Shown: one piece after another, positions 1 to 27,342 of the stretch
Layout of the letters: each line of letters begins with the position of its first letter
Numbering within the stretch: position 1 is the first letter of the stretch
From: Alphaproteobacteria bacterium
GTDB taxonomy: Bacteria > Pseudomonadota > Alphaproteobacteria > JACZXZ01
Length of the DNA: 64,000 nt
Assembly (NCBI GenBank): GCA_052143835.1
Contig: JBKQRV010000093.1
Location: forward strand, 69,387 to 133,386
Direction: 5' to 3'
The notes under the pieces: model-generated
The model's database searches: none
The model's input: the letters and a program-made list of their open reading frames with translations, nothing else
Told to the model about the DNA's origin: nothing
Position numbers and translations under genes: made by a program

Positions 1-1959
1 CTGCGCCTTGCCCCCGAGCAGGTCGTCTGGTTCGGTCCCGGCGATTCGCGCGACTACCTGCTCTATGCGCTCGCCCGGCTCGCCCACAGCGACGTGTCCT
101 TCCTCGGGCCCATGCAGGAGGACCTGGTCCTCGAGATGCAGAAATGGTTCAGCGAGCACGGTCGCAGCATCGGTGTCGCCGCCTCTGATGTAACGGACGG
201 GTGGGAGACCGCGCGCGCGATCGAGGCCCTCGTGGACGAGCGCACCAATGCCTATTTCACCACCGGCAACGGCCTCGTGCAGCGGGCATTGCCTTTTCAG
301 GACGTTCCGGTCGCCTCCGCCTATGAGCAAAGCCTAGGCTATCTCTATTATCTGCTGTGGACCCGCTACGTCAGCGCGGGGCACGCGGCGGCCCAGTCGA
401 TCAACATCACCGGCCTGGAGGCGCTTTATCCGGAGCGGCTGGCGCTCCTCGGCGTGCGCTATGTCGTGGCCCGCGACAGCAAGTTCTACGAGCGGCCTCC
501 GCTCGAGCGGGTCATGGGCTGGCACGGCTACTCGGTCTATGCCTTGCGTGACCCGAATATCTCGGGGTACCGCGTAAGCGGGATCGAGTTCGGCGACACG
601 CTCGCCGACGAGCTGAGGCTGATGCGGCGCCACGGCTTCGATCCGCGGCGGACGGCCGTCCTTCCCGCGAGCGAGCGAGGCTCTTTTGAGGGCTCGGCGG
701 GCCGAGGGGCGGGAACTTTGCAAAGCTCGTCGGTCCGACTGGCGCCGAGCGAGCTGATCTTCTCGGCGAAGAGTTCGGAAGGGCAAAGTCTTGTCGTGCT
801 GCCGTTCAACTGGTCGAGATGCTGGCGGCCGGAGTGGCGTCGCGGAGCGGGTCATCTTACCCGTGCGGACGTCGGGCTCATAGGCGTCGCTTTCGCGGGC
901 GACGTCGAGCTGCATTTGAGCTGGACGGCCGGTTACGGCCGAGGGCGGGCGTGTCTGAAGGAGGATGCGGGGTTGGTCAGCGCGGCAAAGCAAGCCGCGA
1001 GCGAGGTCGGCTTCGCCGAGGCATACGAGCCGTTCGACGAGCATTCCCCGCCCTTTGCCGTGGAGCGGCTGACCTTCGCACGTGACAACGACATGGTGGC
1101 GGAGCGCGAGGCTGCGAGGCGCGGCGACATCGAGGCCGCCGTTCCCGCTTACGTCGCCGCGTCGCTTTCGCAAGATGAGCGCGACGGCCGCAGCTGGTCT
1201 CAAGCGGTCGATTGGCGGTTCACGAGGAGCGGGGAGGGCTATGAGTTCTCGGGCCGAAACGGTGGCGGCGCGAGCCTCGTGGTCCTGCCGCTCGCCTATT
1301 CCTATTGCTGGCGGGCCGCCTGGCAGGGACCGGCCGGCGAGCTCGTGCCGGTCGACCGGGATTGGCTTGGCGTGCTCTTCCGAGAGGCGGCCGCGTTGAG
1401 GCTCGATTTTGCATCAGAGGCTCCCGAGGCGGGCTGCTCGCGCCAGGACCGCATAAGGCAGACGGTCTCCGATCTGCTCGACCAAATCGGCGGGAGGACG
1501 GCCGGCGGGCGCTATGCGCTCGGCGAAACGGTCCGCTTTGGCATCGGCGGCGACGCGGAGGCTTATATGACCTCAGGATGGTCGGGACCTGAGGCCTGGG
1601 GGCGATGGTCGGTGGGCAGGACCGCACAACTTGTCCTAAGGGTCGATCCGCCGTCCTCGGGCGACCTGCAATTGGACGCGGTCGTGGGCGCCCTCATCGG
1701 CGGCGCTCGGCAGTCCGTATCGGCGACGATCGCCGTCAACGGCGTCACGGTCGGCGAGTGGCATTTTGCCGGCGGTAGCGGACCCGCCCCCAGGCAAGTC
1801 ATCGTGCCGCGCCATCTGGTGAGCGGAACGGGCGACATGGTCGTCGAGTTCACGGTCGACGATCCCGTGTCTCCCGCGGCGCTCGGCATGTCGAGCGATG
1901 AGCGCGAGCTCGGACTGAGCTTCGCGAGCCTTGCGGTGAAGGCCGCGGACAAGCATTAG
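1..1959 (+). CDS. 5'-truncated paralog (type A) of the giant membrane-protein family; only the C-terminal soluble region is present. It has two YfhO-C-like beta repeats and one GW-PE-WG module.
   Basis: The reading frame is open from nt 1 with no stop, so the gene continues upstream of the window. It aligns at about 65-70% aa identity with the C-terminal 640 aa of ORFs 13798..17472 and 20488..24156. Shared stretches include LVLEM, VPVASxYEQSLGYLYYLLWTRYVSAG, VVLPFNWSxCW and GWSGPEAWGRWSVG. Confidence 0.8.
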   Translation: MRLAPEQVVWFGPGDSRDYLLYALARLAHSDVSFLGPMQEDLVLEMQKWFSEHGRSIGVAASDVTDGWETARAIEALVDERTNAYFTTGNGLVQRALPFQDVPVASAYEQSLGYLYYLLWTRYVSAGHAAAQSINITGLEALYPERLALLGVRYVVARDSKFYERPPLERVMGWHGYSVYALRDPNISGYRVSGIEFGDTLADELRLMRRHGFDPRRTAVLPASERGSFEGSAGRGAGTLQSSSVRLAPSELIFSAKSSEGQSLVVLPFNWSRCWRPEWRRGAGHLTRADVGLIGVAFAGDVELHLSWTAGYGRGRACLKEDAGLVSAAKQAASEVGFAEAYEPFDEHSPPFAVERLTFARDNDMVAEREAARRGDIEAAVPAYVAASLSQDERDGRSWSQAVDWRFTRSGEGYEFSGRNGGGASLVVLPLAYSYCWRAAWQGPAGELVPVDRDWLGVLFREAAALRLDFASEAPEAGCSRQDRIRQTVSDLLDQIGGRTAGGRYALGETVRFGIGGDAEAYMTSGWSGPEAWGRWSVGRTAQLVLRVDPPSSGDLQLDAVVGALIGGARQSVSATIAVNGVTVGEWHFAGGSGPAPRQVIVPRHLVSGTGDMVVEFTVDDPVSPAALGMSSDERELGLSFASLAVKAADKH

Positions 1960-2370
1960 GCCGCGAAAGACCCTCTCCTTGCGCGCATATTGACGGTCCG
2001 CTTGCGCTCTGCCAAGCTGCCCCGTTGGTCTGATGCGGGCGGCTCCTCGAAGGAAGACGGTCGGGCGGAAAGTCGACTTGAGGATGGACCGCGAGGCAAA
2101 TGCACGACGAGGCGCCGGCTTGGCAGCCGCAGCGCCCTCCAAGAACCATCGCTCCCCTCGCAATCTCCTCTGTTTCGGGCTCATGTGCATCTCGCCGGCA
2201 CTACGGTCCGTTTTACATGCTGCGAATCACGATCGCATCGTCTACCACGATAGTTGCCTGGCTAACTTACCGATGATGTTCGCGGTCGCGAAGAACATTA
2301 GGTGCGCCGGCATGCCCGACTTGCTCGGGGGATCGATGAACGGCCGACCAACCCCTTTGCGGAACTGACC

Positions 2371-5300
2371 ATGGACGGGACCGCTCGCCGATCTGACCGT
2401 TCCTGGCAGCTCGCACTGGCGATTCTCTACCTCGGATTCTACGCTTGGATGCTCGTCGCCGGCCACGGCATGCCATATGTCATGGATGCCAACGAGTCCT
2501 TCTCGATCTTCTGGCACGCTTATAATCTTTTTCATTTCAATATCGGAGACTCGCTGGGCATTACGGACGAGTCCTTCAGCCCGCACGCCGCGGCACATCC
2601 CTATCTTTACACCCACCAAGGCAATTTTCCGCGTCTTTTCGGCTTTCTGATCTATGTGCTCGGCGCGCGCACCATCCAATCCCAGGTGGTGGCAACCACG
2701 GCAATCGTCGGGACGGCGGCGCTCGTTCTCGCCTACCGCTATTTCGCACGGATCGCCGAGCCCCGCTTTGCCGTGATCTATTGCGCACTTCTGGCGACCG
2801 ACTACGTTCTCTATGGGCAGTGGCACGTTGTGACGGACCGCGTCTGGTCCGGGCTTTTCGTTTTCGCGCTCTTGAGCTGTCTGCACGATGCGGGGGGCGA
2901 GCGGCGGCGTCGAGCGCTCGCGTTCCTCTTCTTGATCGGAGCCGGTCTGTTCTACAACGAGCTGGCGTTCGCCGGAATGCTGTCGATTGCCGGCGCGCTT
3001 TACGCCGTCATGATGTTCTGGCGGCGCCCGGCGTTGGCGCTAAGCGCGATCGCGAGCTTTGTCGCAGGCGGGCTCTCGGCCTTGACAATCTTGTTCGCTC
3101 AGTTGAGCGCGCGCTTCGGCACCAGTGCCGTCTTGACGGATCTCTTCTATACCTTCGCCGCCCGCAACTTCGCCGACGACCCGGCCGGTCGCGAGGCTGT
3201 CCGCTCGTTCTTCGAGACGCACAAGATCGCCTTTTGGCCGCAATACGTCAACGGCGACCTCTATCGCAATCTCAAGGAATTCATTTTCTCCCTCAGCCAC
3301 TACGACCTGCAAGTCTACACGCCGATTTTCTGCCTGGTCACGGGGCTGTTGCTCGCGGGATGGGGTCTCGGGGCCGCCCGCACCAAATCTGCAATGCTCG
3401 AGCCGTCGGCGGAGCGCGTGCGGAACGACCCACCGCAGGCCCGATCGCCCGGACAGCGCGCGACCGACCTTGTTCTCCTCATTCATCTCGCGGGCGCGCT
3501 TTTTCTCGTCCTGCGGCCGATCGCGATTGGCGAGGGCGTGTTCGCGCTCTATCCGGCATCCGTTGCGCGTGGCGGTGCGCCGACGGGCCTTCACGTCTCG
3601 CCGGGAACGATCGTCGCCGCGCTGGCCGCGATCGCCGGCGCATTGTCGATCGTCAAGGCGAGCACTGGAAGCTGGTGGGCGACGACCCGGCTGTCGCCCT
3701 GGGCGGCGTTGAGGCTGTTGGCGCTCCTCATCGTGACGGGGGCCGCCCTGGGTTGGCAAAGACTGCTCTATCAGGGCGGCGGAGGGGGGGAACTCGCTGA
3801 CATCTGGATGGTTCCGCTAGCGGCACCCTGGGCGCGAACCGCAGCGCGTTTGGCCGTGGCAACCGCCCTCGTCGTGGCGATCTTCATGGCAATGGGCGGC
3901 GAACGCGCACTCATCGCACGCTCATGTAAAGACATCTTCGCGCGGATCGCACGCTTCGTCATCGCCGGGCTCGCCGGCTACGCCGTGGTCTATTGGCTAT
4001 CGCCGGGCATCGTCTTGAGCGGCTTTCAGTGGCGTTATGCACCCTTCGTCGTCTTTTTCCTTTGTGCGGTGCCGGCCTCGGCGTTCTATCTGCTTGTTCT
4101 CGCAACGGGGCGGCTGCGCGCCGTCTGGCATGAGGGGCATGCCGGCGAAACCGCGATGAGCCTTGCCGCGGCGGGCTTGCTGTTGGCAGGGCTCAGCTAT
4201 TGGGTCGGTCTGCAGCTGAGCTATGTGCGGCTCTTGCCGCCTGACCATGGCAGCTTCTTCCGGCGGCTCGCCGCCCCGCCTTTCCGCGGCCACAGCTTCG
4301 TCGCCAACAGCTACACCGCGCCGCTGACGGCTTTCACCGACGAGTGGGGGTACGCGGATACCGTGATCGGCAAGGGCGGCGTCGTGCTGACCTCGGAGGG
4401 CTATGTGCTTCATCGTGATATGCGCTCCTACCTCTGGTTCGCGGACCGGGGCCGCAATCCCGCCTATGCCTTCCCGGACTTTTATGCATGCTTCGTGCAG
4501 CAGAACCTCGCCAGCGCTGCGGCGCGACGCGTGGCGAAACAGCACGGCTGGCAACCCGCCGGGGGCTGTTCGACGTTGCCGCTCATTGCCGAGGCCGGCC
4601 GGCCGGGCGCGGTGCTGCGCAATGAGGTGGTCGCCCGCGATGCGCCGGATCGCGACTATTGGGCGGTGATCCGCCTCGATCCGGACTACCCGCCTTTCGT
4701 GCGCACGCTTGAAGCGGCGGTGCAAGCGGATGGAGCCGGCGGGCATCGGGTCGTCTACAGCGCCGCCGCCGGGCAGCAGCAGGGCAAGCCCTTAGTGTCC
4801 CCACTCGCCGAACTCGTGGCCATGCCAGGGGACAGCTCGTGCAAGCTCGATCCTAGGCACCTCGTGACGCTGGCCAAGAGCGAGGACGGCGCGCCGTTTC
4901 CCCTGCCGCCCGATTTCACAGGCACGCTCGCATTGCGCTACACGCCGCGCACGGCCACGCGAGCCGGCCAATCGGTGCTTTCGCGACCGTGGCGAGTGAC
5001 GCCGGCCGGAGCCGAGCCTTGCCCCTGGCCGACCGTCGATTACAGCTTCGCCGAGTCTGGCTCGTCGTCGACGTGGCTGTTGGACGGCTGGGGCGATCCC
5101 GAGCCCTGGGGTACTTGGACGGTCGGGCCGGCGGCGCGGCTCGTGCCGGATATTCACACGCTTCCCGACCACGGATTGGTGCTGACGATCATGGCTACAC
5201 CTTTCGTGACGCCGGTGCATCCCTCCGTCGAGGCTTCGCTCCAGGTCAACGGTGTGGCTGTCGGGCACCTGGTTTTTGCTCTCGGTCTTCCCGATCGGCC

Positions 5301-5925
5301 CCGCTCAGTTTTCGTTCCGAGGGCGGCATTGGAGCGCAATATGCCGCCCGAAGTACGTCTTGTCATAACGGATCCGGCATCGCCGCTGGCGCTCGGCATG
5401 TCTTCCGACGAAAGGCTGCTTGGGTTGGGACTGCGCCGGATGCAGTTGGCCGAGGGAGTGGAGCAGCCGGCAATGCTCGTCGAGCCGGGCGAGGATCTCG
5501 ATTTCTCGGCCGGCGGCCATGCCGTCGCGGCCCTGGGAGAGGGATGGATCGCGGCCGAGCCCAGGGGGAGCTGGAGCATTGGCCACACCGCGGACATCCG
5601 GTTCAGGCTCGCCCACCCGATCGGCGGCGATGCAGTGCTGCGGATCGTGGGCGCACCCCTCTTGGCCGCGCGCCGCACCACGGCCTCGGTCGACCTCGCT
5701 GTCAACGGCAGCGCCGTTGGCTCGATCCAGTATCGCCTCGGCGAACAGGAGAGCGAACGGGTTATCAAGATCCCCGGCGCGGCTTTGGCACAGTCGGCGC
5801 AATCGGTGGTCTCGCTTACCCTGCACATGTCCGACGCGAGATCGCCGAAGGAGCTCGGCCTTTCCGACGATCCGCGCCCTTTGGGGTTCTTCCTGCGCCG
5901 GCTGCGGCTCGATCCTGTGCAGTGA
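2371..5925 (+). CDS. Giant polytopic membrane protein (type B). It has an N-terminal domain of about 600 aa with 12 or more TM segments, a periplasmic-type soluble region, and two tandem GW-x2-PE-x-WG-x-W-x-G modules at the C-terminus.
   Basis: ORF 2302..5925. ATG at 2371 (MDGTARR) is preferred over the upstream alternative start. Hydrophobic helices run through about aa 640. The two module copies are GWGDPEPWGTWTVG...SPLALGMSSDERLLGLGL and GEGWIAAEPRGSWSIG...SPKELGLSDDPRPLGFFL. Confidence 0.75.
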   Translation: MDGTARRSDRSWQLALAILYLGFYAWMLVAGHGMPYVMDANESFSIFWHAYNLFHFNIGDSLGITDESFSPHAAAHPYLYTHQGNFPRLFGFLIYVLGARTIQSQVVATTAIVGTAALVLAYRYFARIAEPRFAVIYCALLATDYVLYGQWHVVTDRVWSGLFVFALLSCLHDAGGERRRRALAFLFLIGAGLFYNELAFAGMLSIAGALYAVMMFWRRPALALSAIASFVAGGLSALTILFAQLSARFGTSAVLTDLFYTFAARNFADDPAGREAVRSFFETHKIAFWPQYVNGDLYRNLKEFIFSLSHYDLQVYTPIFCLVTGLLLAGWGLGAARTKSAMLEPSAERVRNDPPQARSPGQRATDLVLLIHLAGALFLVLRPIAIGEGVFALYPASVARGGAPTGLHVSPGTIVAALAAIAGALSIVKASTGSWWATTRLSPWAALRLLALLIVTGAALGWQRLLYQGGGGGELADIWMVPLAAPWARTAARLAVATALVVAIFMAMGGERALIARSCKDIFARIARFVIAGLAGYAVVYWLSPGIVLSGFQWRYAPFVVFFLCAVPASAFYLLVLATGRLRAVWHEGHAGETAMSLAAAGLLLAGLSYWVGLQLSYVRLLPPDHGSFFRRLAAPPFRGHSFVANSYTAPLTAFTDEWGYADTVIGKGGVVLTSEGYVLHRDMRSYLWFADRGRNPAYAFPDFYACFVQQNLASAAARRVAKQHGWQPAGGCSTLPLIAEAGRPGAVLRNEVVARDAPDRDYWAVIRLDPDYPPFVRTLEAAVQADGAGGHRVVYSAAAGQQQGKPLVSPLAELVAMPGDSSCKLDPRHLVTLAKSEDGAPFPLPPDFTGTLALRYTPRTATRAGQSVLSRPWRVTPAGAEPCPWPTVDYSFAESGSSSTWLLDGWGDPEPWGTWTVGPAARLVPDIHTLPDHGLVLTIMATPFVTPVHPSVEASLQVNGVAVGHLVFALGLPDRPRSVFVPRAALERNMPPEVRLVITDPASPLALGMSSDERLLGLGLRRMQLAEGVEQPAMLVEPGEDLDFSAGGHAVAALGEGWIAAEPRGSWSIGHTADIRFRLAHPIGGDAVLRIVGAPLLAARRTTASVDLAVNGSAVGSIQYRLGEQESERVIKIPGAALAQSAQSVVSLTLHMSDARSPKELGLSDDPRPLGFFLRRLRLDPVQ

Positions 5926-6111
5926 GGGGCGGCAGTCGCATGTGAGCGGAAATCAATTACGTTGGGCTGGCGAGACGTTTCATGGTTCCCGCTCCAGTCC
6001 ATTGACGGGTCAGCTACCCTCTGCCAAGTTGGCTCGATCCGGTACAGGCGATTTTTATTTGGAGCGAGTTGCGATCGCGGGCGGGAGTATAGACGAGCGA
6101 CACTTGAGTTA

Positions 6112-8481
6112 ATGATGGCCCTGGAGTCACGCGCGCGACACATGTCCAGTGCGGCATTCGTGCCTTTTTCGGAAGTCCGTGCCGCTCGAGGCGATCCGTG
6201 GTGCTTCGGCCTCATGATCGGCGTCCTGGCGCTGTGGCTGATCGTCCACGGCCTATTTTGGGGGCGCCTCATTTACCATGACGCCTGGATGTACAACTTT
6301 CCAAAGATGCTCGGCATTTCGAAGGGCATGGCCTGCGCCGGCCTGCCGGAATGGCTCGGAAAAATCGACTCCGGAACGCCGGTCAGCATCTATACCACTA
6401 GCGACACCATTACCAATCCGCTCCGGCTTGCTCTGCTTTTCTTCATGAGCTGCTTGAAGCCGAGCGTTGAGGCCGCGGTCTATCTCCAAAAGGCGCATAT
6501 CTTCATTTTCTATCTGTGGCTGGCCTCAAGCATGTATGTGATGGGTCGCGTCCTGTTCCGGCACCAGTTGTCGGCCGTTTATCTCTTCGCGGCCACCCTC
6601 TTCGCCGGATTATGCATGCAGACCGCGCACTCCGACCAAGCGGCGGCCATTCTGTTCTGGTTGCCCTGGATCGTGATCTGCCTCGTGAAATTTCACCGCC
6701 AGAAAGCGGAGAGGCAAGCGCACTGGTACTTGAATGCCGCCGCCCTCTTCGTGGCGCTTCAATCGCTTGACCAATCCCCCCATTTTATCGTCTTTGCCGC
6801 CGGGCTCGCATTGATCCTCTACGCCGTGATGTGCCCGCAAGCGCTCCTAGCTGGACTGCGCCTGCACTGGTTGCGTCTCTGGCCCGCGGCATTCTTGCTG
6901 CTGCTGACCGCCGCCCATTTGCATTTCTTGCTGGGCGAAATCGCTGGCTATATTCCCTCTGTGCGACGCGGTTTGAACCTCGTCCCTTCCGAGATCGGCC
7001 AAAACGCGTTGGTCCAGCCGACGGCATTGATCGGTGCCGTCTTTCCGCTCAGCTTTACGGTCGCATACGATTCGCTGGAGTTCGGCCTCCGCACCTGGCT
7101 GGCGGGGATCGGCGTGTCGGGGGGGAGCCGATTCATCTATCGACTCGATGTGCTGATGTTCTTCGTAGGGATCGTCCCAGGCCTGTTGGCCACGGTCTTT
7201 CTCCTGCGCCCGGGCTGCGGGCGGTTGCGCGCCGGGTGGGGGCTGTTCGCGCTGCTCTGCCTGCTTGTGCCGATGCAGGACACCCGACTTTATCTGCTAC
7301 TGTTCCATCTTCCCTTCTTCAATTTGTTTCGCAGCTATCTGTTGCTTTTCCTCTTCGGCCTCTTCGCGGTGCTCGTGATGAGCGGTTTCGGCATGGATGC
7401 GCTGCTCACGCTCGCTTTCGCGGAGCGCCGCCGCTTGATCTGTCAAGCGCTTCTCCTTGGGGCCGTGCTAGCAGCGGACGCGGCGGTCGCATTCGGATGG
7501 CTGCTCTCGCTCCCGGACACTTACACCGCGCTGCCCCGCACGGCCGTGCTTGACATCCTGATTCTCTTGGCCGGCTTCGGCGCGCTGGCCTGGGGCGTCC
7601 TTCGCGCCGGCGATATCCATCGCGGGATGTTCGCGGTCGTTGTCGTGCTCGTGGCGTCGCAGGCCCTGTATCAAGTGGAAGTTTACCGCATCGTGGGCAT
7701 CCCCGTGGCGCAGGTCATCGACCTCTTTGGCCTCGACGCGGCGGATCGGACCCCGCTTCCGGCCGCCACCGTGCGCGACCCCAACGTGCTTACGCGCAAG
7801 CTTTGTGCGCGCTTCGCCGAATGTTATCTCTCGACTCATGACACGGCATCGCTCAACCGCGACCTGCAAGGCACGTTTCTGCGCAGCCGAGAGGAGGCCG
7901 TGTTCCAGCCCGGCCTCGCGCGCCCGGTGATCGAGGCGCTGAGCGCGGTCGGCCATCCCGTCTTCTGGACAAGCCGTGGTGCCGCTAGCTATGTCGATGC
8001 TGCCGAGCTTACCCGGCGGCTCAACGCCCAATCCTCGCGAATCGCCGAGCATCTGAGCGAGGTGGTCTACGTTCGTCCCGACGACCTCGAGCGGCTCGGG
8101 CCATTGCCGAGCAGGGCGAACGACGCCGTGCTGTCCGATCTCTCGCGCGGCATCGATTGGGTGCGCTTGTCCTATGGCGCTGCATCGCCTTTCTACCTGA
8201 ACGCCGCCATCGCTTACGATCCCCATTGGCGGGCGACGGTGGGAGGCAGGGCGGCGACCGTGGTGCGCGGCAACTTCGGCGGCCTCGTGCTCGCCGTGCC
8301 CGCCGGTTCCGGGGCCATCGAATTTCGCTACGTCAATCGCGCGAGCCAGCTTTTCTTCGCCTCGAGGATGATCATGGGCCTGGCAGGCCTCGCCGCTGCG
8401 GCCTGGCTTGTCTTCGCACGGTACGAGCGTCGCCTGGCCGAGGGAGGGCGGGTCGAAAACCGAGGCGGCGGCGGCGCATGA
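6112..8481 (+). CDS. YfhO-like polytopic membrane protein (type C, about 790 aa), a putative GT-C-type glycosyltransferase.
   Basis: ORF 5962..8481, with ATG at 6112 (MMALESR). It has more than 12 predicted TM helices. The C-terminal YDPHWRATVGGRAATVVRGNFGGLVLAVPAGSGAIEFRY is followed by a terminal TM helix (MIMGLAGLAAAAWLVF). This matches the YfhO-family C-terminal signature as I remember it. Confidence 0.6.
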   Translation: MMALESRARHMSSAAFVPFSEVRAARGDPWCFGLMIGVLALWLIVHGLFWGRLIYHDAWMYNFPKMLGISKGMACAGLPEWLGKIDSGTPVSIYTTSDTITNPLRLALLFFMSCLKPSVEAAVYLQKAHIFIFYLWLASSMYVMGRVLFRHQLSAVYLFAATLFAGLCMQTAHSDQAAAILFWLPWIVICLVKFHRQKAERQAHWYLNAAALFVALQSLDQSPHFIVFAAGLALILYAVMCPQALLAGLRLHWLRLWPAAFLLLLTAAHLHFLLGEIAGYIPSVRRGLNLVPSEIGQNALVQPTALIGAVFPLSFTVAYDSLEFGLRTWLAGIGVSGGSRFIYRLDVLMFFVGIVPGLLATVFLLRPGCGRLRAGWGLFALLCLLVPMQDTRLYLLLFHLPFFNLFRSYLLLFLFGLFAVLVMSGFGMDALLTLAFAERRRLICQALLLGAVLAADAAVAFGWLLSLPDTYTALPRTAVLDILILLAGFGALAWGVLRAGDIHRGMFAVVVVLVASQALYQVEVYRIVGIPVAQVIDLFGLDAADRTPLPAATVRDPNVLTRKLCARFAECYLSTHDTASLNRDLQGTFLRSREEAVFQPGLARPVIEALSAVGHPVFWTSRGAASYVDAAELTRRLNAQSSRIAEHLSEVVYVRPDDLERLGPLPSRANDAVLSDLSRGIDWVRLSYGAASPFYLNAAIAYDPHWRATVGGRAATVVRGNFGGLVLAVPAGSGAIEFRYVNRASQLFFASRMIMGLAGLAAAAWLVFARYERRLAEGGRVENRGGGGA

Positions 8482-8489
8482 CGGCGCTT

Positions 8490-8640
8490 GGCCATCCTCC
8501 GGAGCCGGGCCGGCAGGTGGGGCCGACGCTTCTTTTGTCGGCCAATACCCCTGGCTCCTCGTTGCCGGCCAGGACATGCCCCGCGTCATGGGCGGCGATG
8601 AATTCTCCTCGATCCTTTGGCATGCTCACCGCGCGGCGCG
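8490..8640 (+). pseudogene. Degenerate remnant of the N-terminus of a type-B paralog.
   Basis: Translating ORF 8408..8791 gives YPWLLVAGQDMPRVMGGDEFSSILWHAH. This parallels the type-B N-terminus YAWMLVAGHGMPYVMDANESFSIFWHAY at 2440-2530. The fragment is frame-broken and has no following gene body. Confidence 0.5.
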
Positions 8641-8996
8641 GACGCGTGCGAATGCCTCGGATTTGATCGAGATGCCGCAGTTCGAGTATGGACGAGCGAT
8701 TTCGGCAAGCGTAAAAGAGCGCCGGCAATCTCCTTACCCGATTTGCAGCGGCTGGACGAGAGGGTACGACATGGACGACCAAGAGGCATGAGGATAGTGG
8801 GCGCATCGAGCCTGAGCGGCGATCCTCCAATGACGAGCCAATTCAGCGCTGGGCGTCTTTGTTGTCCATGATTTTGCCAGGCCCAATCTCGGCCCTTCAA
8901 CGCATCATGAGAGGACTGCGTGCGCCTTGGCCGGCGATCGGCGGTCGGTTGCCGAGCGTGGCATCGGCATCGCCTCGGTCGTTGGCGTGGGACCGC

Positions 8997-13745: not shown

Positions 13746-13803
13746 GAGGCACCGCGCGGCGTCGGGCGCGCAGCACGGCCTCGCTCGGACCCAAACCTTG
13801 GCA

Positions 13804-17472: not shown

Positions 17473-17561
17473 AGTATTTTCATAATTGCTGGCGATAACC
17501 GGCGTTGGCGGGATGCTCGGCGCATTCGGCGGAAGACAATCGCATTTCTAACGCGGCTTGT

Positions 17562-18356
17562 TCACCAGCTGCGCGATAATCGCCGAGCGAGAATTCGGAA
17601 AAGGCTGTGGCCGACCGATACGAAATTGCGTAGGCGCAAAGCCTTCGACCCTGGCGACGCGGTCGCTGGCAGGACGAGCTCTTTGTAGCTAGCTCCTTCT
17701 CCCACCAGACGTGTAATGAGCTCGGCCTGGAATCCGAATCCGGTCGACTCGACGGCAAAGCGCATCACCTGCCACCGTCGGTAGGCGGGAAATCCGTTGT
17801 AGTACTCGATCCTGATCCCCGAGATCTTATTGACAAGCCAGGTGTATAGGCGGGACAGGCCCTTACGGAGCACGCCGCGCCCGCGCACGTCGCGATAGAC
17901 GGGGATGATGATGTCTGCCTCGCCAAGACTGCGCATGATTGCGTCATGCGCCTCGGGCAACTCGTAGTTATCCCCGGCGACCGCACGGTAGTACGTGCCC
18001 TTCCCAAGGAACGCGCAGTCGGTGAAGTTGCGGCCGAGACCGCGATTTCGGGGCAGCGTAATTAGTCGTATGTTCAGCTCGGGATGCCTCCCTTGGTAGG
18101 TGCGGACGACCTCGCTAGTCCGGTCTGTTGAACAATCGTCGAAGACGATCACCTCGATTGTCGTGCCGGTGCGCCGCGATGCGGAAAAGACGTTCTCAAG
18201 GGCATTGACCACATGCCCCTCCTCATTGAGGCACGGCATGAAGACGGTCAGCTCGATGGGCCACTCGCCCCCCAAGGCCTCTTCGAGAATCCGATCCACC
18301 TCGAGTCCTCTCTCCCAGCCACCTGCAAGAGACGCCTCACGCGGCCTATGTCGCAC
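17562..18356 (-). CDS. Family 2 glycosyltransferase of the DPM1/ArnC/CsbB-like polyprenyl-phosphate sugar synthase type.
   Basis: IELTVFMPCLNEEGHVVNALENV...VIVFDDCSTDRTSEVV is a GT2 A-type fold with a DxD-like FDD motif. The likely start is GTG at 18356. Confidence 0.7.
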   Translation of the reverse strand: MRHRPREASLAGGWERGLEVDRILEEALGGEWPIELTVFMPCLNEEGHVVNALENVFSASRRTGTTIEVIVFDDCSTDRTSEVVRTYQGRHPELNIRLITLPRNRGLGRNFTDCAFLGKGTYYRAVAGDNYELPEAHDAIMRSLGEADIIIPVYRDVRGRGVLRKGLSRLYTWLVNKISGIRIEYYNGFPAYRRWQVMRFAVESTGFGFQAELITRLVGEGASYKELVLPATASPGSKALRLRNFVSVGHSLFRILARRLSRSW

Positions 18357-18480
18357 GGGTAAGACGCGGTCGTGGCCGTCGTCGTCCCGGACAGATGAAG
18401 TTCGCGTGAGGACGCTGATATCGGATCAGTCACATGCGCCGCTGCAGGCTCCGATGCGACCTTGCCTTCGCTGTATTCGG

Positions 18481-19470
18481 CTATGCGTGCAAGGTGAACG
18501 CCGTATCGTCCTCGCGAATAAGGTCGAGGTATTTGCGTCCCCAGGCAATCATGTCCTTGATTCCAACCTGAAGACTGATTTGGGGTTGCCAGCCAAGCTC
18601 CGCGAAGATGCGCGAGCTGTCGAGCCAATACTGCGGGTCCTCGCCTGGCCGCCCCTCTGTCGTCTCGGTCAATTCGTCCATTGCGATACCGAATTGCTCG
18701 GCGAGAATGGCGACGAGATCGTGCACGCTGATGGGTTCCTTCGGGCCCGCATTGTAAATTCTTCCCAACGGCGCTCGCTCGCAGATGAGGTAAATTGCAT
18801 GGGCAAGATCCCGCGCGTGAATAAACGAACGCCGCGTACGGCCGGCGCCCTCGAGCGGCAGCTTTTGCCCGGTTAGGGCGCAGAGCACCGCACGAGGTAG
18901 TACACGATGCAGTTGCTGGCCGGGGCCATAGGCATTCGACGGTCGGATGATGTTCATCGGGAACTTGAAAAACTTCCAAAGTGAAATCAAGTGCAAGTCC
19001 GCGGCCAGCTTCGAGACGGCGTATGGGCTGGCCGGCAAGAGCGGAAAGTCCTCCGTCGCCGGCGACTCGGTGTGGCCATAGAGCTCAGACGTTCCAATTT
19101 GCAGGAAGCGCTCCAAATAGTCCCGCTTCAAGAGCTCTTCGCAAGTCTGGGCGAGGCAGGTGACATTGGTCTCGTAATATCGCCATGACTTGTGCCAGGA
19201 ACTCGAATGCGCGAGCGCTGCGAAATTAACGATCACTTCCGGCTTCTCGCGATCGAGCAGCTCGAAGAGACGATCCTGCTCGAAGACCATATGGATCTGC
19301 TCGTATCGGTAGCGCGAATCGTCCTTGCCCACATCGAGCGTATAGGCCGCGGAGCGCGGGATGTTTCTTCCCACGCAGATAACCCTTCGAGGGTTGGCGT
19401 GCTCAAGAAGATACTTTGCAGTATGTACGGCAAAGACGCCACCGCCGCCAAGCAAGACAAAGGTCCTCAA
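18481..19470 (-). CDS. NAD(P)-dependent epimerase/dehydratase (extended SDR; nucleotide-sugar 4,6-dehydratase or epimerase-like).
   Basis: It has an N-terminal Rossmann motif (LLGGGGVFAV), a YxxxK motif (PYAVSK), and length and overall features of the RmlB/GalE/UXS family. The start appears to be TTG at 19470. Confidence 0.75.
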   Translation of the reverse strand: MRTFVLLGGGGVFAVHTAKYLLEHANPRRVICVGRNIPRSAAYTLDVGKDDSRYRYEQIHMVFEQDRLFELLDREKPEVIVNFAALAHSSSWHKSWRYYETNVTCLAQTCEELLKRDYLERFLQIGTSELYGHTESPATEDFPLLPASPYAVSKLAADLHLISLWKFFKFPMNIIRPSNAYGPGQQLHRVLPRAVLCALTGQKLPLEGAGRTRRSFIHARDLAHAIYLICERAPLGRIYNAGPKEPISVHDLVAILAEQFGIAMDELTETTEGRPGEDPQYWLDSSRIFAELGWQPQISLQVGIKDMIAWGRKYLDLIREDDTAFTLHA

Positions 19471-20487
19471 TGAGTTCTTCCTTTCAGAAATGTGTAGGGA
19501 ACGTTCGACCCGCTGTAGGGCGGCTAAGCTAAGAGAATCCCCCTTCCTTGTAAATAGGACCGGACCGCGGATAAAGGCGTCGGCTTCCCCCGCCCAGCGA
19601 TGGGGCGGCGAAAAGCCGTGCTCCTAGCTTCGCACGCGTCTCAAATCGTCGATCTGGCTGGTTGTGCCCGCCAGATCACATGCTCGCGAAGAGGCTGCTA
19701 CGCGGGGCGCCACCTCGCAAACCGCACAGCAGCTCAACTGCATATGGCGGCGCGCAGAAGACGGAGCTGATATGCCGAAATCTGCGCCCCCGCGACACGA
19801 CTCCGATCCGAGGCTTTTCGGCGCTTGCGGGCCTTTCGCGGGTCGCCTTTCTAGCGAAACGGGGCATGGTTGGTAAGTTGCTTGATTTACCGAGAAGATC
19901 GGGTATTCAGGTGCGCAATGCCTCAGAACTTCAAAAGCCGCCCCGACCGTTCGGGCAGGCGGGTGCGGGCAGGCAAGTGCCAATGCCCGTATATCTCGTT
20001 GACCGGTTCAGGCGATGGAACTATAGATTGAGGTCACTTCACAGAAAAGTAAGTCGCGGCGGGATATCGTGGTACAGAATGATCCGGCCCAAGGCGCGGA
20101 GCACGTAACTCCGCGACGCCTCGCCCGCAACCTCGACCCTCTGGCATCACTTGCGGCCGCCGGAGGGGCACTCTTACAATCTTCCGGCCATGCGGCGCAT
20201 CCTGGGACAGAAGGGCGTTGTAACGCCGCTCGCGGTCGGTCATCTGGGCCACAAATTCCATCGGTGCCGTCCGGAGCCGCAGTTCGCGCGCGGCGCGTCG
20301 GCGGCGTGAGGCGGGTCGCGCTGGCCCGGCAACCTATCCCACCCCAGGGGGGCTCGCTCGGCCGTCTGGGCCGCCGCGGCCGATCCGAGAGCCGTCGCCC
20401 CCGGTATCTGCGCGCACTTCCGCGCGACTTGGCCTTGTTCCTGCGAGTCTGCGCATGAGCGAGCCGTTAGCGTAGCTGAACCAGGCC

Positions 20488-23400
20488 GTGCGGCGAACCA
20501 CACTGACCCCCTATCTCGACAACCTTGTCCGCCTCGTCGCCTCGGACCGGCGCGCTTTTCCGCTCGCTCTCCTGCTGGTGCTGGCGTTCAACCTCTTCTG
20601 GTACGGTGCCTTCCTGTCGTTTCCGCTCTTCGGCGAGGATGCGGGAGCGCTATTCTCCAACCTCCTCGAGACGATCAAGGACGGCCAGCTCGCGACCACC
20701 CATTTCCCCATCAAATGGCTCGAGGGCCTGGGGCAGCCCAATCTCTTCGTCACCTTCACCTTCGATCCGTTCTCGTGGGCGATGCTGCTGCCGCTCGAGC
20801 AGGCGGATTCGTTCCGCCTCTCGATGGCGCTGCGCGCGAGCGCGGGTTGGCTCAGCAGCTACTGGTTCGTGCTCGTGCTTTTTCGCGGCCGGCGCGGCGT
20901 GGCGCTGACCGCGGCGACGCTCTATCTCCTTGTCGATTTCACGCTCATGAACGCGTGGGGAATTCATACTTTCGCCGGCATGTACAACGCGACCCATGCC
21001 GCGCTGTTTCCGCTCCTGCTGGCGCTCGCCCTTCTCGTCATGCGCAGCCGGCGCTGGCTCGGGCCTGCCGATCTCGCCCTTCTCGTCGCGCTGTTTTTCT
21101 TTCTGCTCGATTACCCGATCGGCTCCCTGATCGGCACCTGCGTGCTCCTCGCCTACACGGTCGTGGCTCTCGGACTGACGCGCCCAGCCGAGCGCGCGGC
21201 CGCCGTGCGGGGCCTTGCGAAAATCGTGGCGATGGTGGCGATTCTGCTGCTGGCGCCGCCGCTTCATGTTCTCGCGTCATGGTCGGCGCTGCTGCAGGAT
21301 TCAGCCCGAACAGTCTTTCCCGGCGAGCTGTTCGCTTACGGATATGACTATGTGCCACCGGTGATGTGGGCGCGGACGTCACCCGCTTTGCGCGCCTGCA
21401 TTCTCCTTTGCCTGTCGGTGCTGCTGTTCAATCGGCGCTGGCCGCGCCCCTTGCGCATGGCGGTCGGAACCCTGCTCATAGTAGTCGGTGGCGTGCAGCT
21501 CGCCGCACTCGCCAAGTATCTGGAGTGGGCCCCGACGCTCATCGACCGCCTGCCGCGCTTCCAGTTTTTCGAGTTCTACGCCACGCCCGCTTATGCGGCG
21601 TGCGGTGGCTTCGCGCTCTATTACTGGCGGGACCTGCTGTTTCCGCGCCTGGCGGGGAGGCGGCGCGTCGTGTCGTGGCTGCGGGGTGCCATCCTTTTCT
21701 TCCCTCTCGCCGTCGTCGTCTTGCCGCTTGGGGCGGTTGCGGTCGGCACCTATGCGCTCCTCGCCATCGTCGCGCGCGCGCGCGGCGAGGCTCAGCGCGC
21801 CGACTGGACGGCGTCGCCCGCATCGCAGCGTCTGGTTGCGCGGGCGGCCCTGATCGCGCTCGTGTTGGCCGCGGTCGGGGCCTGGCTGCCTCCGACCGCG
21901 TATATTTATCCCATTTTCTATCTCTACGGCCGTTGCCAGACCGGCCTCTTTTGGTGCCGCGACCCGGCCGGCGTGACGATGGGCATGGGCGACAATCCCA
22001 TCACCCGATATCTGCGCCGGGCGCTCGGCGGGGAAGGGCCGTTCGCGGGGCGCGCGGAGACCCTCGTCAGGCCCCCCGTTCGGTTCGAGCGCGCGCCTGC
22101 GGGGGAAATCAAATGGACGCCCGAGCTCTATGACCGCCTCCACCGGTGGTACGCGCGCGCGTACGACGCATTGGCCGACAAAGGCTCACCCACCGGCGAT
22201 CCCTTTTGGCTGGCGCCGCAGGATTTCACCTGGGAGGCGCGCTGGCCGCTCCTGGTGGCGCTGGACAAATTCGGCCACGGCGACGTGGAGTTCGACGGTC
22301 CCTCCCAGGAGGATCTGATCTTGGAGATGCACAAGTGGTACGACGAGGAGGGCCGCAAGTTCGGCCTGCTTGCGCGCGACTTCATGGACCCATGGGAGGG
22401 CATGCTCTCGGTTACTGCCGCCGTCGATGAGCGGAACGCGGCGTTCTTCGGTACCGGCAATGGCCTCATGATGCGGGCATTGCCGTTCCAGAATGTTCCG
22501 GTCGCCTCCTCGTACGAGCAGAGCCTCGGCTATCTCTATTATCTGCTGTGGACGCGCTACGTCAGCGCCGGCCAGCGCGGGTTCAAGTCCATCAATATGA
22601 CCAGCCTGGAGGCGCTCCACCCGGAACGGCTGGCGCTCTTGGGCGTGCGTTACCTGCTCGCGCGCGACAGCAAGGTCTACGAGCGGCCGCCGCTTCCGCA
22701 CGTCATGAGCTGGAACGGCTATTCGATCTATGAGGTGCCCGGTGCGAACGTCGCCGGTTACGGCGTGAGCGGGGTCGAGTTCGGGAGCACCTTGACGGAC
22801 GAGCTGAGGCTCATGCGGCGACATGGCTTCCACCCGAGAGACACGGCCGTACTGCCCGCGAGCGAGCGCACTTCATTCGAGGGTAGGCCGGCCCGAGCTT
22901 GGGGCACCTTGCAGAGCTCAGCGATCACCCTCACGCCCGGCGAGTTGACGTTTACGGCCGTCGCTTCCGGCGGAGAGAGTTTCGTCGTGCTGCCGTTCAA
23001 CTGGTCGCATTGCTGGCAGGCCGAGTGGCGTAAGGGATCCGGACGCTGGAGCCGCGCGGATGTCGATTTGATCGGCGTCGCCTTTACGGGCGAGATCGAG
23101 CTGCATCTACGGTGGACGGCAGGCTACGGTTCCGCGAGCGCCTGCTTGCGCGACGACCGGAAACAGATCGCCGAGGCAAAGCGCGCGGCGGCCGAGATCG
23201 GCTTCTCACAGCCCTACGAGCCTTTCGACGGCCGCTCGCCGCCCTTCGCCGCGGTCCGGCCGCGCTTCGCCGCGGATGCGGTCGAGGCGACGGTGCTGGA
23301 GCTGAAGTCGATGTACCAGAGCGGCGACGAGGTAGTGGTGCCCATTTCCGTCAAGCAGTTGCTGTCGCCCGCCGAGCTCGATGGCAGCGCCTGGTCGACG

Positions 23401-24156
23401 GGGGTCAACTCGGATTTTCGGCCGAGCACGGACGGGTACGAGCTCGTGGCGCGCAATGAGGGTGGCGTGAGCTTATTGGTCTTGCCGGTGCCCTACTCGA
23501 CCTGCTGGCAGGCGGAGTGGCAGGGAAGCCCCGGCGCCCTCGTCCCCGTCGACGAGAGCTGGCTCGGCGTGCTGTTCCGCGGCGCGGCTGCACTCCGGCT
23601 TCGTCTCCCGGCCGAGGCTGCGCAGGCAAGCTGTGCCCAAGCGGACCGCGCGCGGGAGCGGATCGTCGATCTCCTCAAAGGCGACGCCGGCAAAATCGTC
23701 GGTGGACGCTATACAATCGGCGACACCATCAAGTTCGGAGCCGGCAGCGGCTCTGAATGGTACACGACGCGGGGATGGTGGGGCGCTGAGTCGTGGGGAA
23801 GATGGTCGGTCGGCGACGACGCGCGGCTGGTCCTGCGGCTGGGGGCACCGCCGCCGGGCGACCTGGAGCTCGATGCGGATTTGACGGCTTTGATTCTGCC
23901 CAATCGACCGGAAGTGCGGGCGACGGTGCGCGTCAACGGGATGAAGCTCGCCGTGTGGGACTTCCGTGCCGATAACACGCCCGGCCGACGCCAGGCCATC
24001 GTGCCGCGCGACTTGGTGGCGGATGCGAGGGTGATGATCGTCGATTTCCGGATCGACCATGTGGCCTCGCCGCTCGAGCTCGGCGCTTCGAGCGACAAGC
24101 GGCCCCTGGCACTCGGCTTCCGCAGCCTGACCGTGCGCGTCGCGGGGGCCCATTAG
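20488..24156 (+). CDS. Giant membrane protein (type A paralog, about 1220 aa).
   Basis: The start is GTG at 20488. It is collinear with 13804..17472: AFNL(Y/F)WYGAFLSFP(V/L)FGED, NRRWPRPLR, VPVASSYEQ(A/S)L(D/G)YLYYL(F/L)WTRYVSAG. The C-terminal module is GWWGAESWGRWSVG...SPLELGASSDKRPLALGF. Confidence 0.8.
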   Translation: MRRTTLTPYLDNLVRLVASDRRAFPLALLLVLAFNLFWYGAFLSFPLFGEDAGALFSNLLETIKDGQLATTHFPIKWLEGLGQPNLFVTFTFDPFSWAMLLPLEQADSFRLSMALRASAGWLSSYWFVLVLFRGRRGVALTAATLYLLVDFTLMNAWGIHTFAGMYNATHAALFPLLLALALLVMRSRRWLGPADLALLVALFFFLLDYPIGSLIGTCVLLAYTVVALGLTRPAERAAAVRGLAKIVAMVAILLLAPPLHVLASWSALLQDSARTVFPGELFAYGYDYVPPVMWARTSPALRACILLCLSVLLFNRRWPRPLRMAVGTLLIVVGGVQLAALAKYLEWAPTLIDRLPRFQFFEFYATPAYAACGGFALYYWRDLLFPRLAGRRRVVSWLRGAILFFPLAVVVLPLGAVAVGTYALLAIVARARGEAQRADWTASPASQRLVARAALIALVLAAVGAWLPPTAYIYPIFYLYGRCQTGLFWCRDPAGVTMGMGDNPITRYLRRALGGEGPFAGRAETLVRPPVRFERAPAGEIKWTPELYDRLHRWYARAYDALADKGSPTGDPFWLAPQDFTWEARWPLLVALDKFGHGDVEFDGPSQEDLILEMHKWYDEEGRKFGLLARDFMDPWEGMLSVTAAVDERNAAFFGTGNGLMMRALPFQNVPVASSYEQSLGYLYYLLWTRYVSAGQRGFKSINMTSLEALHPERLALLGVRYLLARDSKVYERPPLPHVMSWNGYSIYEVPGANVAGYGVSGVEFGSTLTDELRLMRRHGFHPRDTAVLPASERTSFEGRPARAWGTLQSSAITLTPGELTFTAVASGGESFVVLPFNWSHCWQAEWRKGSGRWSRADVDLIGVAFTGEIELHLRWTAGYGSASACLRDDRKQIAEAKRAAAEIGFSQPYEPFDGRSPPFAAVRPRFAADAVEATVLELKSMYQSGDEVVVPISVKQLLSPAELDGSAWSTGVNSDFRPSTDGYELVARNEGGVSLLVLPVPYSTCWQAEWQGSPGALVPVDESWLGVLFRGAAALRLRLPAEAAQASCAQADRARERIVDLLKGDAGKIVGGRYTIGDTIKFGAGSGSEWYTTRGWWGAESWGRWSVGDDARLVLRLGAPPPGDLELDADLTALILPNRPEVRATVRVNGMKLAVWDFRADNTPGRRQAIVPRDLVADARVMIVDFRIDHVASPLELGASSDKRPLALGFRSLTVRVAGAH

Positions 24157-24400
24157 GAAGGCGCGATGGACGCCTGCCCTCGGTCCGCGACCACGCCGCC
24201 CGACCGCGCAAGGCACATCTGCGCTCCGAACCCGCTCGCATCGCCTGGCCGCAGCGCCTGCCGATAGGCCGATTTCTTGCGTTCGCCGAGCGGAGCGCCC
24301 GACGTAACGGGCCGTATCGATTGCCAAGAGCGGGGGAGTGGACGTCGTCGGTTCTCCCGATCCTGCGGCGATTGATCGCGCTTAGGCCGGAACGCTCGCA

Positions 24401-26143: not shown

Positions 26144-26373
26144 CTCCCCAACGGCTCTCCTTGGTAACGCTCTCGGCAATGGAATGTCCGATGCGGTTCA
26201 GTATAGGTGGTCGTTCTCCGCTTGGAAAAAGCTTGTTCCTTGACACGGTAGCAAAAGCTCGTCCTTGCGAGGTGGGAATTCCACTTGGCTCAATTCTTCC
26301 TCTCATCTGGTGCCCGAGCATGAGGCAGAACGGGCGCTCGACAAGAAGCATCCCGCGTGCGCAGCCGCCCGCG

Positions 26374-27141: not shown

Positions 27142-27342
27142 GAACGTCGTCGCCTGAGGTGAATTTGACGGGAGGCGAGTGTTCTAACATCCCGGCGTGC
27201 TTCGGCAAAGCCGTTTGGGGGGACCCGAAGAGGGGTGCTCAAGACGCGCGGGCAATTGCCGCTGGACAACGCGCTGTTCCGGCTTTACCAAATCGCCCGT
27301 AGAGCCGCCAACGCCCTAGCGAACGAGTACTATGACACCGGG

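Follow-up and report, generated by a model that had tools for sequence, protein, structure and literature searches.

The short stretch of near-identical DNA in three paralogous genes (A1, A2, A3) of our window, the whole 64,000-nucleotide stretch of DNA analysed here, corresponds to the most constrained peptide motif of the encoded protein family and not to a recent copy-paste event. The three genes are ancient paralogs without recent homogenisation, and no sign of recent gene conversion was seen in this genome. On an evolutionary time scale, recombination does occur in the family, though without a tract in this window. Judging from structural modeling, the A proteins probably represent an unnamed family of inner-membrane glycosyltransferases of about 1220 aa. 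For this explanation as a whole, we estimate a probability of about 0.8.

The conserved stretch in the A genes

An earlier note on this DNA had described three direct-repeat paralogs, and these genes were indeed recovered, all on the same strand. The genes and their motif segments are as follows:

1..1959, plus strand, A1: GT-C-type membrane protein of 1219 aa, truncated by the start of the window to its 3' 653 codons
13798..17472, plus strand, A2: 1224 aa, with a further ATG at 13804
20488..24156, plus strand, A3: 1222 aa
304..378, plus strand, A1 motif segment: VPVASAYEQSLGYLYYLLWTRYVSA
15811..15885, plus strand, A2 motif segment: VPVASSYEQALDYLYYLFWTRYVSA
22495..22569, plus strand, A3 motif segment: aa 670-694

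The full A1 gene is contained in L002 (136-3795), where its DNA is identical to the window copy. When we compared the three copies pairwise, we obtained 55-59% amino acid identity, which is lower than the 65-70% given in the earlier note, 63-66% nucleotide identity and 50-56% identity at third codon positions. Gene-wide dS values (NG86) ranged from 0.99 (A1-A3) to 1.19. The longest exact matches were 26 nt (A1/A3), 24 nt (A2/A3) and 20 nt (A1/A2), and the top 300-nt direct repeats among the copies reached only 69-77% identity. Each copy has nearest orthologues elsewhere that are closer to it than the other two copies of the same genome (P0012 for A1, 74%; P0009 for A2, 70%; L003 g5 for A3, 94% nt over the full length). 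An A1 orthologue with 94.4% nucleotide identity, uniform at 92-96% per 300-nt bin, is carried by a Stellaceae MAG (L012). A2 is the compositionally atypical copy (GC3 of 0.72-0.75 vs. 0.80-0.83 for A1 and A3).

The three motif segments are homologous and in register. They encode the peptide VPVASSYEQxLxYLYYLLWTRYV, which is the most conserved motif of the family and which in A3 forms its densest cluster of invariant residues (Y676, L680, Y684, L686, W688, T689, R690, Y691). The motif columns are invariant or nearly so in 31 homologues reaching down to 38% identity. Over the 75-nt core, A1 and A3 share 68/75 nucleotides, A2 and A3 60/75 and A1 and A2 56/75; over the 89 nt originally pointed out, compared in register, the A1-A3 pair shares 79/89 and the other two pairs share 69/89 and 68/89. 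Near-identity thus holds for A1 and A3 (68/75), but A2 differs at 15-19 of the 75 positions. The claim that all three copies read one consensus fails for A2: a 38-nt consensus (TATCTCTATTATCTGCTGTGGACNCGCTACGTCAGCGC) has exact matches at 340 and 22531 (chance expectation 0), and A2 did not match the quoted consensus even when up to 3 mismatches were allowed. Counted by eye, A2 departs from the consensus at 3 positions of the first 15-mer and at 6 of the 38-mer.

Comparison with other genomes puts these numbers into perspective. The A3 motif shares 73/75 nucleotides with its L001 and L003 orthologues vs. 68/75 with A1, and the A1 motif shares 72/75 with its L012 orthologue. More distant alphaproteobacterial orthologues (L006/L010) still share 67/75 with A3, vs. 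68/75 for the A1-A3 pair, and homologues from Sulfurifustaceae, Methylomirabilota and a 'Bacillati' MAG share 55-59/75. Among copies and homologues, motif substitutions cluster at synonymous positions and the peptide is retained. Strong purifying selection on the protein, together with a common GC-rich codon preference, would keep the DNA alike; this codon preference is common to A1 and A3 (GC3 about 0.8) and weaker in A2.

Alternatively, the stretch might be a functional nucleic-acid element, such as a regulatory motif acting in RNA or DNA, or a signal for recombination, embedded in the genes. The local nucleotide conservation and the two allele breakpoints 125-160 nt downstream, which are all that speaks for such an element, are countered by the mainly synonymous substitutions within a preserved peptide. 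In A2, 22-23 of the 25 residues are retained in spite of the 15-19 nucleotide differences, and we saw no DNA-level conservation beyond what the peptide needs. We consider this element extremely improbable.

Silent sites and the question of gene conversion

Silent codons were analysed with longest-run and max-segment permutation tests and, in addition, with the max-chi-square method. As positive controls, L003 and L004/L005 both gave p<2e-4. For all three pairs of A1, A2 and A3, silent-site matches were not significantly clustered (permutation p=0.06-0.58), and for the segment singled out in the earlier note (27/34 codons) the silent-site permutation gave p=0.46. Max-chi2 values among the window copies were only 5-16, vs. 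99-586 for real mosaics. No mosaic tract was found among these copies, and by the first refuting condition of the earlier note its claim fails for this genome. In the window pairs, dS varied between 0.42 and 3.8 over the 25-codon motif and between 0.62 and 1.78 over the 90-codon block. A tract with dS of about 0 was absent among these copies, whereas true tracts in relatives have dS values of 0.00-0.04. In sliding-window comparisons the nearest neighbours were still the orthologues and not a paralog of the same genome. For short near-identical stretches in diverged paralogs of a GC-rich genome, a peptide motif plus codon bias is a better explanation than gene conversion, and the silent-site test cleanly separates the two.

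The strongest candidate for a conversion remnant was the best-scoring A1/A3 similarity tract:

22453..22732, plus strand, partner 262-541: 228/280 identical nucleotides (81%)

This block could be what is left of an old A1-A3 conversion that has since been eroded by mutation, and protein constraint would then be only part of the explanation. Its 81% identity over 280 nt exceeds the 66% background, third-position identity is 0.63-0.70 vs. about 0.55 elsewhere, and dS is reduced to 0.62 over 90 codons (0.42 over 25 codons) vs. 0.99 gene-wide. However, silent sites were not significant (p=0.46), and the A1 block is nearest to its own orthologues (85% to P0012 and 84% to P0014, vs. 80% to A3). Moreover, the A1 orthologue of L012 is as close to the A3 motif (69/75) as A1 itself, which argues against a lineage-specific A1/A3 event, and unrelated genomes also share 67/75 with A3. 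We regard such an old conversion as quite unlikely and retain constraint on the peptide as the preferred explanation.

In E. coli, the minimal efficient processing segment (MEPS) for recombination is 23-90 bp (PMC3758752). The longest identities among the window copies lie at (26 and 24 nt) or below (20 nt) the lower bound of this E. coli range, and the overall divergence is about 35%. Judged by the E. coli value, these sequences suggest that the window copies are very poor recombination substrates; with uninterrupted identity this short, they are unlikely to recombine at an appreciable rate.

Mosaic alleles and conversion tracts in relatives

Two segments of the window showed abrupt changes in identity when aligned with close relatives:

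13620..16043, plus strand, divergent A2-region segment: about 67% identity to the close relative L003, flanks about 94%
22694..24156, plus strand, A3 3' part: 73% identity to L001, 5' part and downstream DNA 92-97%

Between the window and L003, the genes B, C, D and A3 are 92-97% identical, but identity drops to 61-73% across 13650-16000. The 5' 2.4 kb of A2 are about 67% identical to L003, and the closest known relative of this 5' allele is found in L019 (83% nt). On the sequence evidence, 13620..16043 is a replaced or mosaic allele. For A3 vs. L001, the breakpoint was mapped to 22694 (about aa 735, chi2 335). No donor for the 3' half of the L001 A3 counterpart or for the window's A2 5' allele was found among the window's paralogs (best about 67-68%). 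It appears that alleles pass between lineages and that accessory genes are gained and lost.

Within single genomes, adjacent A2/A3-type copies carry conversion tracts in L003, L004 and L018, and a weaker tract occurs in L001. The common 5' tracts span 0.45-1.65 kb with dS of about 0-0.04. For L003 g4/g5, 54 identical codons occur in one run (best segment 155/170, p<2e-4) and dS is 0.028 over codon columns 50-150. In L004 the two copies lie on a single contig and are 99.2% identical across 482 nt, then 93.5% across 773 nt. The L018 copies are 91-97% identical across nt 150-600. When P0004 of L004 was compared with P0002 of L005, the mismatch rate rose from 1.6% to 34% at position 7471. In these relatives, the 5' 0.45-1.65 kb of directly adjacent A2- and A3-type copies has been homogenised repeatedly by conversion.

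The recombination potential proposed in the earlier note therefore has to be divided. It probably does not extend to the window copies (at most 26 nt of identity) but is borne out for the family by the tracts and mosaic alleles of relatives, which is different evidence from that originally put forward. Deletion or shuffling of the intervening genes had also been suggested. Gene content does vary among relatives, but none of those examined showed a loss of intervening genes by crossover between two paralogs. L005 was considered as a deletion variant and rejected: unrelated upstream DNA, which matches neither the window nor other loci, is joined 275 nt before the end of its A2-type gene, and there is no hybrid A gene. 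L005 represents either another kind of rearrangement or a chimera.

Every sequence used for comparison is a metagenome contig or a MAG, and strain-level assembly chimerism could mimic some mosaics. The relatives' mosaics, and likewise the divergent A2 allele of the window, might then be assembly or binning artefacts (strain chimeras, mis-joins at repeats). The metagenomic origin of all loci, the broken gene calls of L001, which suggest long-read errors, and the L005 junction are compatible with this explanation. However, both copies lie inside single contigs and differ by 1-8%, and so cannot be collapsed repeats. Contigs from at least three samples and two sources (JGI 3300010379; ENA ERZ25039587 and ERZ25039537) show tracts at the same 5' location, and an A2-like 5' allele occurs independently in L019 (83%). 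Even strain chimeras would need both haplotypes in the population. We judge a purely artefactual origin to be very unlikely and favour genuine recombination in the family.

The general mechanisms of gene conversion between loci and of concerted evolution among bacterial paralogs have been reviewed (PMC3758752, PMC3924818), and a bacterial case is described in PMC12046097. The adjacent paralogs of the relatives, with dS of about 0 in tracts on a background of about 1, resemble such conversion as well as mosaic O-antigen or capsule loci; the sharp-breakpoint alleles and variably present accessory glycan genes of the relatives also resemble the latter. In contrast to known interlocus conversion, the tracts of the relatives occur only in side-by-side copies and only at their 5' end, and the window copies, at about 35% nt divergence, are far more diverged than typical converting paralogs and lack a tract. 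The data match what is known of surface-polysaccharide loci, which vary through recombination; the present case comes from uncultured soil Alphaproteobacteria. A variable glycan locus of this kind is ordinary biology, and current understanding stands.

The two allele breakpoints are independent and lie just 3' of the conserved stretch, where the predicted catalytic part gives way to the variable C-terminal modules. From these two events, a breakpoint preference may exist and the conserved blocks may act as crossover sites. A more far-reaching reading, which we consider rather unlikely, is that the tandem A genes serve to diversify a surface glycan, with crossovers always falling in conserved blocks such as the motif region. 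New combinations of catalytic N-terminal parts and variable, acceptor-binding C-terminal beta-sandwich modules would arise by exchange between paralogs and between strains, and adjacent copies would have their 5' ends homogenised again and again. If true, this would produce combinatorial glycosyltransferase specificities, for instance under phage pressure in soil Stellaceae.

The A protein family and its locus

The A family is rare, with 34 members among 5.8 billion database proteins. When the A proteins were searched against Pfam, NCBIfam and PDB sequences, no family was returned beyond a sub-threshold DUF7024 match, and the conserved motif itself had no match in these three resources. With the DUF7024 model (PF22895), A2 scored 20.6 bits (cut-off 24.4; model positions 12-144 of 145) and A3 gave no hit. 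The YfhO model (PF09586) did not hit A2 or A3 and gave 14.9 bits for the neighbouring gene C (cut-off 28.5). The AF2 model (pLDDT 82.7, pTM 0.84) displays a multi-helix transmembrane GT-C fold. Directly after helix 23-42 follows a conserved acidic motif, in which D51 never varies and both G49 and E50 reach at least 90% conservation. The sidedness of the model places this G-E-D loop putatively on the extracytoplasmic side. The predicted architecture begins with the N-terminal GT-C fold, where G-E-D immediately follows transmembrane helix 1, and continues with a periplasmic domain and three beta-sandwich modules, whose modeled appearance suggests carbohydrate binding. Foldseek TM-scores for the C-terminal model were low (0.15-0.19) because this model spans several domains, and for this reason we treat 'CBM-like' as suggestive only.

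Mycobacterial AftD/Emb-type arabinofuranosyltransferases likewise are GT-C enzymes of large size, with carbohydrate-binding modules in the periplasm. However, the A proteins share no sequence similarity with them that was detectable in Pfam, NCBIfam and PDB searches, and their host is alphaproteobacterial (Stellaceae-like) whereas AftD and Emb are actinobacterial. The YfhO/GtrC/ArnT transmembrane glycosylation systems combine a GT-C enzyme with a GT2 for polyprenyl-phosphate sugar synthesis, and are known mainly from Gram-positive bacteria, enterobacteria and phages (PMC8035078). In contrast, the A proteins miss the YfhO Pfam model, the GT2 of the locus is weakly ArnC-like (E 3e-6, far below cut-off) and a flippase-like small membrane protein was not found at the locus. 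Flagged here is a rare GT-C family whose giant paralogs occur several times in one glycan locus, and this locus is clearly a mosaic when close relatives are compared.

The A genes would be part of a surface-glycan locus of a Stellaceae-like alphaproteobacterium. Neighbouring features are:

2302..5925, plus strand, B: 1207 aa, likeness to the A proteins confined to the C-terminal DUF7024-like beta-sandwich
17473..20528, A2-A3 spacer: 3 kb, GC 58-60%, missing from L001, L003, L004 and L006
17562..18356, minus strand, GT2 glycosyltransferase in the spacer
18481..19470, minus strand, dTDP-glucose-4,6-dehydratase-like gene in the spacer

B holds the DUF7024-like domain twice, and hhalign indicated that this domain is shared with the A proteins (probability 98.9%). 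C and D showed no relation to the A family when profiles were compared (probability 0.2%). At the spacer, the whole intergenic region has been replaced: homology stops at 17462 and restarts at 20529, and neither repeats nor homology were detected at its flanks. This 3-kb cassette of GT2 and dehydratase exemplifies how gene content at the locus differs among relatives. The A enzymes may use polyprenyl-phosphate sugars as donors on the periplasmic face, and variation of the locus may alter a surface glycan. The gene context comprises a GT2 and an NDP-sugar dehydratase beside A3 and GT4/GT2 genes downstream, and in L021 a dehydratase homologue adjoins an A-type gene.

Three A-type paralogs and their conserved motif

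The earlier note had described three same-strand paralogs (A1, A2, A3) that have a DNA stretch in common, and both are real and lie within the window's first 24 kb. The paralogs encode giant membrane proteins of an unnamed family with a predicted GT-C-type glycosyltransferase fold. Window 1-24156 is a row of six giant membrane-protein genes in the order A1, B, C, D, A2, A3.

Genes of the first 24 kb
A1, 1..1959, plus strand, cut by the window start so that the 3' part lies in the window; the complete gene (1219 aa) is L002:136-3795 on the related contig L002
A2, 13798..17472, plus strand, 1224 aa
A3, 20488..24156, plus strand, 1222 aa
B, 2302..5925, between A1 and A2, giant membrane protein of 1207 aa
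C, 5962..8481, between A1 and A2, giant membrane protein of 839 aa, faint YfhO match
D, 8859..13745, between A1 and A2, giant membrane protein of 1628 aa

Window 1..9255 was 100% identical to L002. The database record of a MAG that is labelled 'Alphaproteobacteria bacterium' contains the exact A-protein sequences (tags ACLQME_11520, 11540, 11555), and a gene of a Stellaceae MAG matched A1 at 94.4% nucleotide identity. Sequence-library searches with the A proteins gave no NCBIfam match and no PDB match, and a DUF7024 match at the C-terminus was below threshold. Modelling of residues 701-1222 yielded three beta-sandwich modules, for which Foldseek returned weak matches to CBM-type domains and BcsB. 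Members of the family are rare (34 proteins in a 5.8-billion-protein collection; 10 loci among GTDB species representatives). B has only the C-terminal domain in common with the A proteins, and this DUF7024-like domain is present twice in B; no family assignment was obtained for C and D. C-like and D-like genes were also seen upstream of A1 in the related loci L012 and L017, which suggests that a C-D-A module may have been duplicated. GT4 and GT2 genes are located downstream, and this context fits a surface-glycan locus.

The segments previously named as near-identical align in register as homologues (304-378 / 15811-15885 / 22495-22569), but near-identity is restricted to A1 and A3: over the 75-nt core, identity was 68/75 for A1-A3, 60/75 for A2-A3 and 56/75 for A1-A2. 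The 38-nt consensus said to be read in all three copies was present only in A1 and A3, even when three mismatches were permitted, and the overall amino-acid identity of 65-70% was overstated (measured 55-59%). Whole-gene nucleotide identity between the copies was 63-66% (third positions 50-56%), the longest exact inter-copy matches were 26, 24 and 20 nt, and the best 300-nt repeats detected by an independent repeat finder were 69-77% identical.

The shared stretch codes for VPVASSYEQxLxYLYYLLWTRYV (A3 aa 670-694). Across 31 aligned homologues with identities down to 38%, this motif formed the densest cluster of invariant or nearly invariant columns (Y676, L680, Y684, L686, W688, T689, R690, Y691, others). 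At the DNA level, the more distant alphaproteobacterial orthologues L006 g3 and L010 matched A3 at 67/75 positions, which is essentially equal to the A1-A3 value, and homologues in Sulfurifustaceae, Methylomirabilota and a 'Bacillati' MAG, which belong to other phyla, matched at 55-59/75. A1 and A3 have a strong GC3 bias in common (0.80-0.83), and since GC3 is lower in A2 (0.72-0.75), A2 looks less alike at the same peptide. Judged from these alignments, the stretch is a conserved motif and not a conversion footprint.

Tests for gene conversion among the window copies

From the near-identical DNA, gene conversion among the three copies had been proposed. We carried out a GENECONV-type test, in which codon identity was scored at same-amino-acid codons, site order was permuted, and longest-run and maximal-segment statistics were evaluated. 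Here, no significant clustering of silent-codon identity was found for any of the three pairs of A1, A2 and A3 (p=0.06-0.58); the proposed segment was the top A1-A3 segment (27/34 codons), yet its p-value was 0.46. NG86 dS was 0.99-1.19 gene-wide and 0.62-1.78 in a conserved 90-codon block, max-chi-square on the pairwise alignments was 5-16, and in every sliding window, motif block included, each copy was closer to orthologues elsewhere than to the other two copies. From these four tests we concluded that the duplications are old and that no mosaic tract is detectable among the window copies, which speaks against conversion between them. Nor do they seem to be good substrates for conversion, although they had been regarded as recombination substrates: uninterrupted identity of at most 26 nt at about 35% divergence is at or under the lower limit given for the minimal efficient processing segment of E. 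coli (23-90 bp; PMC3758752).

Conversion tracts and mosaic alleles in relatives

For comparison, the related loci L001, L003-L006, L012 and L017-L022 were fetched, all of which are metagenomic assemblies. L003 carries B, C, D and A3 at 92-97% nucleotide identity to the window. Its adjacent A2- and A3-position genes have a common tract (10085-10681 / 13926-14522; 552/597 identical), in which codon columns 50-150 were 97-99% identical (dS 0.028) and 54 identical codons formed one run (p<2e-4). On the single contig L004, the A2-position gene was, at its 5' end, 99.2% identical to the next gene over 482 nt and then 93.5% over a further 773 nt. When the L004 sequence was compared with P0002, an L005 gene from the same sample, the mismatch was 1.6% before position 7471 and 34% after it. 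The two adjacent A genes of L018 were 91-97% identical at nt 150-600 and 53-75% elsewhere, and L001 showed a weaker tract (88-93%) at the same place. Adjacent copies in these relatives had exact matches of up to 99 (L003), 374 (L004), 89 (L018), 34 (L001) and 52 nt (L006), compared with 24 nt for A2/A3 of the window. The tests in L003, L004, L018 and L001 thus indicate that conversion of A-type paralogs is real and recurrent in the family.

Homogenised 5' segments
L003:10085-10681
L004:5921-7068
L018:~6470-6920
L001:3063-3810

Conversion affects A-type copies that are directly adjacent, at their 5' ends; it affects neither the segment singled out earlier nor this genome. In the four different relatives, the homogenised segment corresponds to codons ~50-200 (first transmembrane helices and G-E-D loop). 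Its recurrence points either to a hot spot of recombination or to selection that keeps the N-terminal parts identical. In L001:3000-10540, A2' and A3' were each called as more than one ORF (602+195 aa; 821+196+152 aa), probably because of frameshift errors in a long-read assembly; otherwise they are pseudogenes.

Allele exchange was seen as well. Window identity to L003 dropped from ~94% to 61-73% between 13620 and ~16043 and reached only 77-89% afterwards. This A2 5' allele was most similar to L019, an unrelated metagenome contig (83%). The 5' 2.2 kb of A2 are atypical in composition (GC 0.605, GC3 0.72 vs 0.65-0.66 and 0.82-0.83 in A1 and A3), which is consistent with an allele that may have been imported from a different lineage. 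A3 was 94-97% identical to L001 up to 22694, 70-77% to the stop codon and 92-95% downstream (chi2 335). Unlike A2 and A3, A1 matched its L012 orthologue uniformly (92-96%). In homologous register, the A2 breakpoint at 16043 corresponds to 22727 of A3 and falls within ~35 nt of the A3 breakpoint at 22694. Both are located 125-160 nt downstream (3') of the motif, at ~aa 735-747, which is the start of the beta-rich C-terminal modules. Crossover resolution in the last block of good conservation would be in keeping with both positions, though the events number only two.

Taken together, the recombination reading fails for this genome and holds for the family, via the tracts in relatives and allele exchange; it is partly supported, on evidence other than that originally put forward. 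At the level of assembled sequences, conversion between paralogs and exchange of alleles apparently drive the evolution of the family, and the locus varies between strains. Such behaviour is known from polysaccharide loci, here in an uncharacterised GT-C family.

Gene-content variation of the locus

Variation across strains, which had also been anticipated, was confirmed: gene content and alleles differ between the window and its relatives (metagenomic assemblies). The 3-kb A2-A3 spacer (17473-20528; GC 58-60%) is absent from L001, L003, L004 and L006, where the A2-A3 gap is ~0.2 kb, and no repeats were found flanking it.

Genes of the A2-A3 spacer
17562..18356, minus strand, GT2 glycosyltransferase gene
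18481..19470, minus strand, dTDP-glucose-4,6-dehydratase-like gene

Because L021 carries a dehydratase homologue (78% at the nucleotide level) adjoining an A-type gene, the spacer looks like a presence/absence polymorphism. L004 and L018 lack gene C, so that D follows B there, and gene order in L017 differs from that of the window. L020 has no counterpart of window 24157-26371; L020:5963-7028, directly after an A-type gene, is 95% identical to window 26372-27437, and therefore the 592-aa minus-strand ORF at 24401..26179, which has no family match, is absent there. A deletion by crossover between two A copies was found in none of the relatives compared.

In L018, D consists of two ORFs (950 + 706 aa), and an IS91-type transposase and an integrase lie downstream of the A pair. 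In L005:1-8700, homology to L004/L006 begins 275 nt before the end of an A2-type gene, of which no more than a 71-aa ORF is left, and the upstream DNA carries unrelated genes (abhydrolase, methyltransferase, glyoxalase); L005 represents a rearranged variant of the locus or else a chimera of the assembly.
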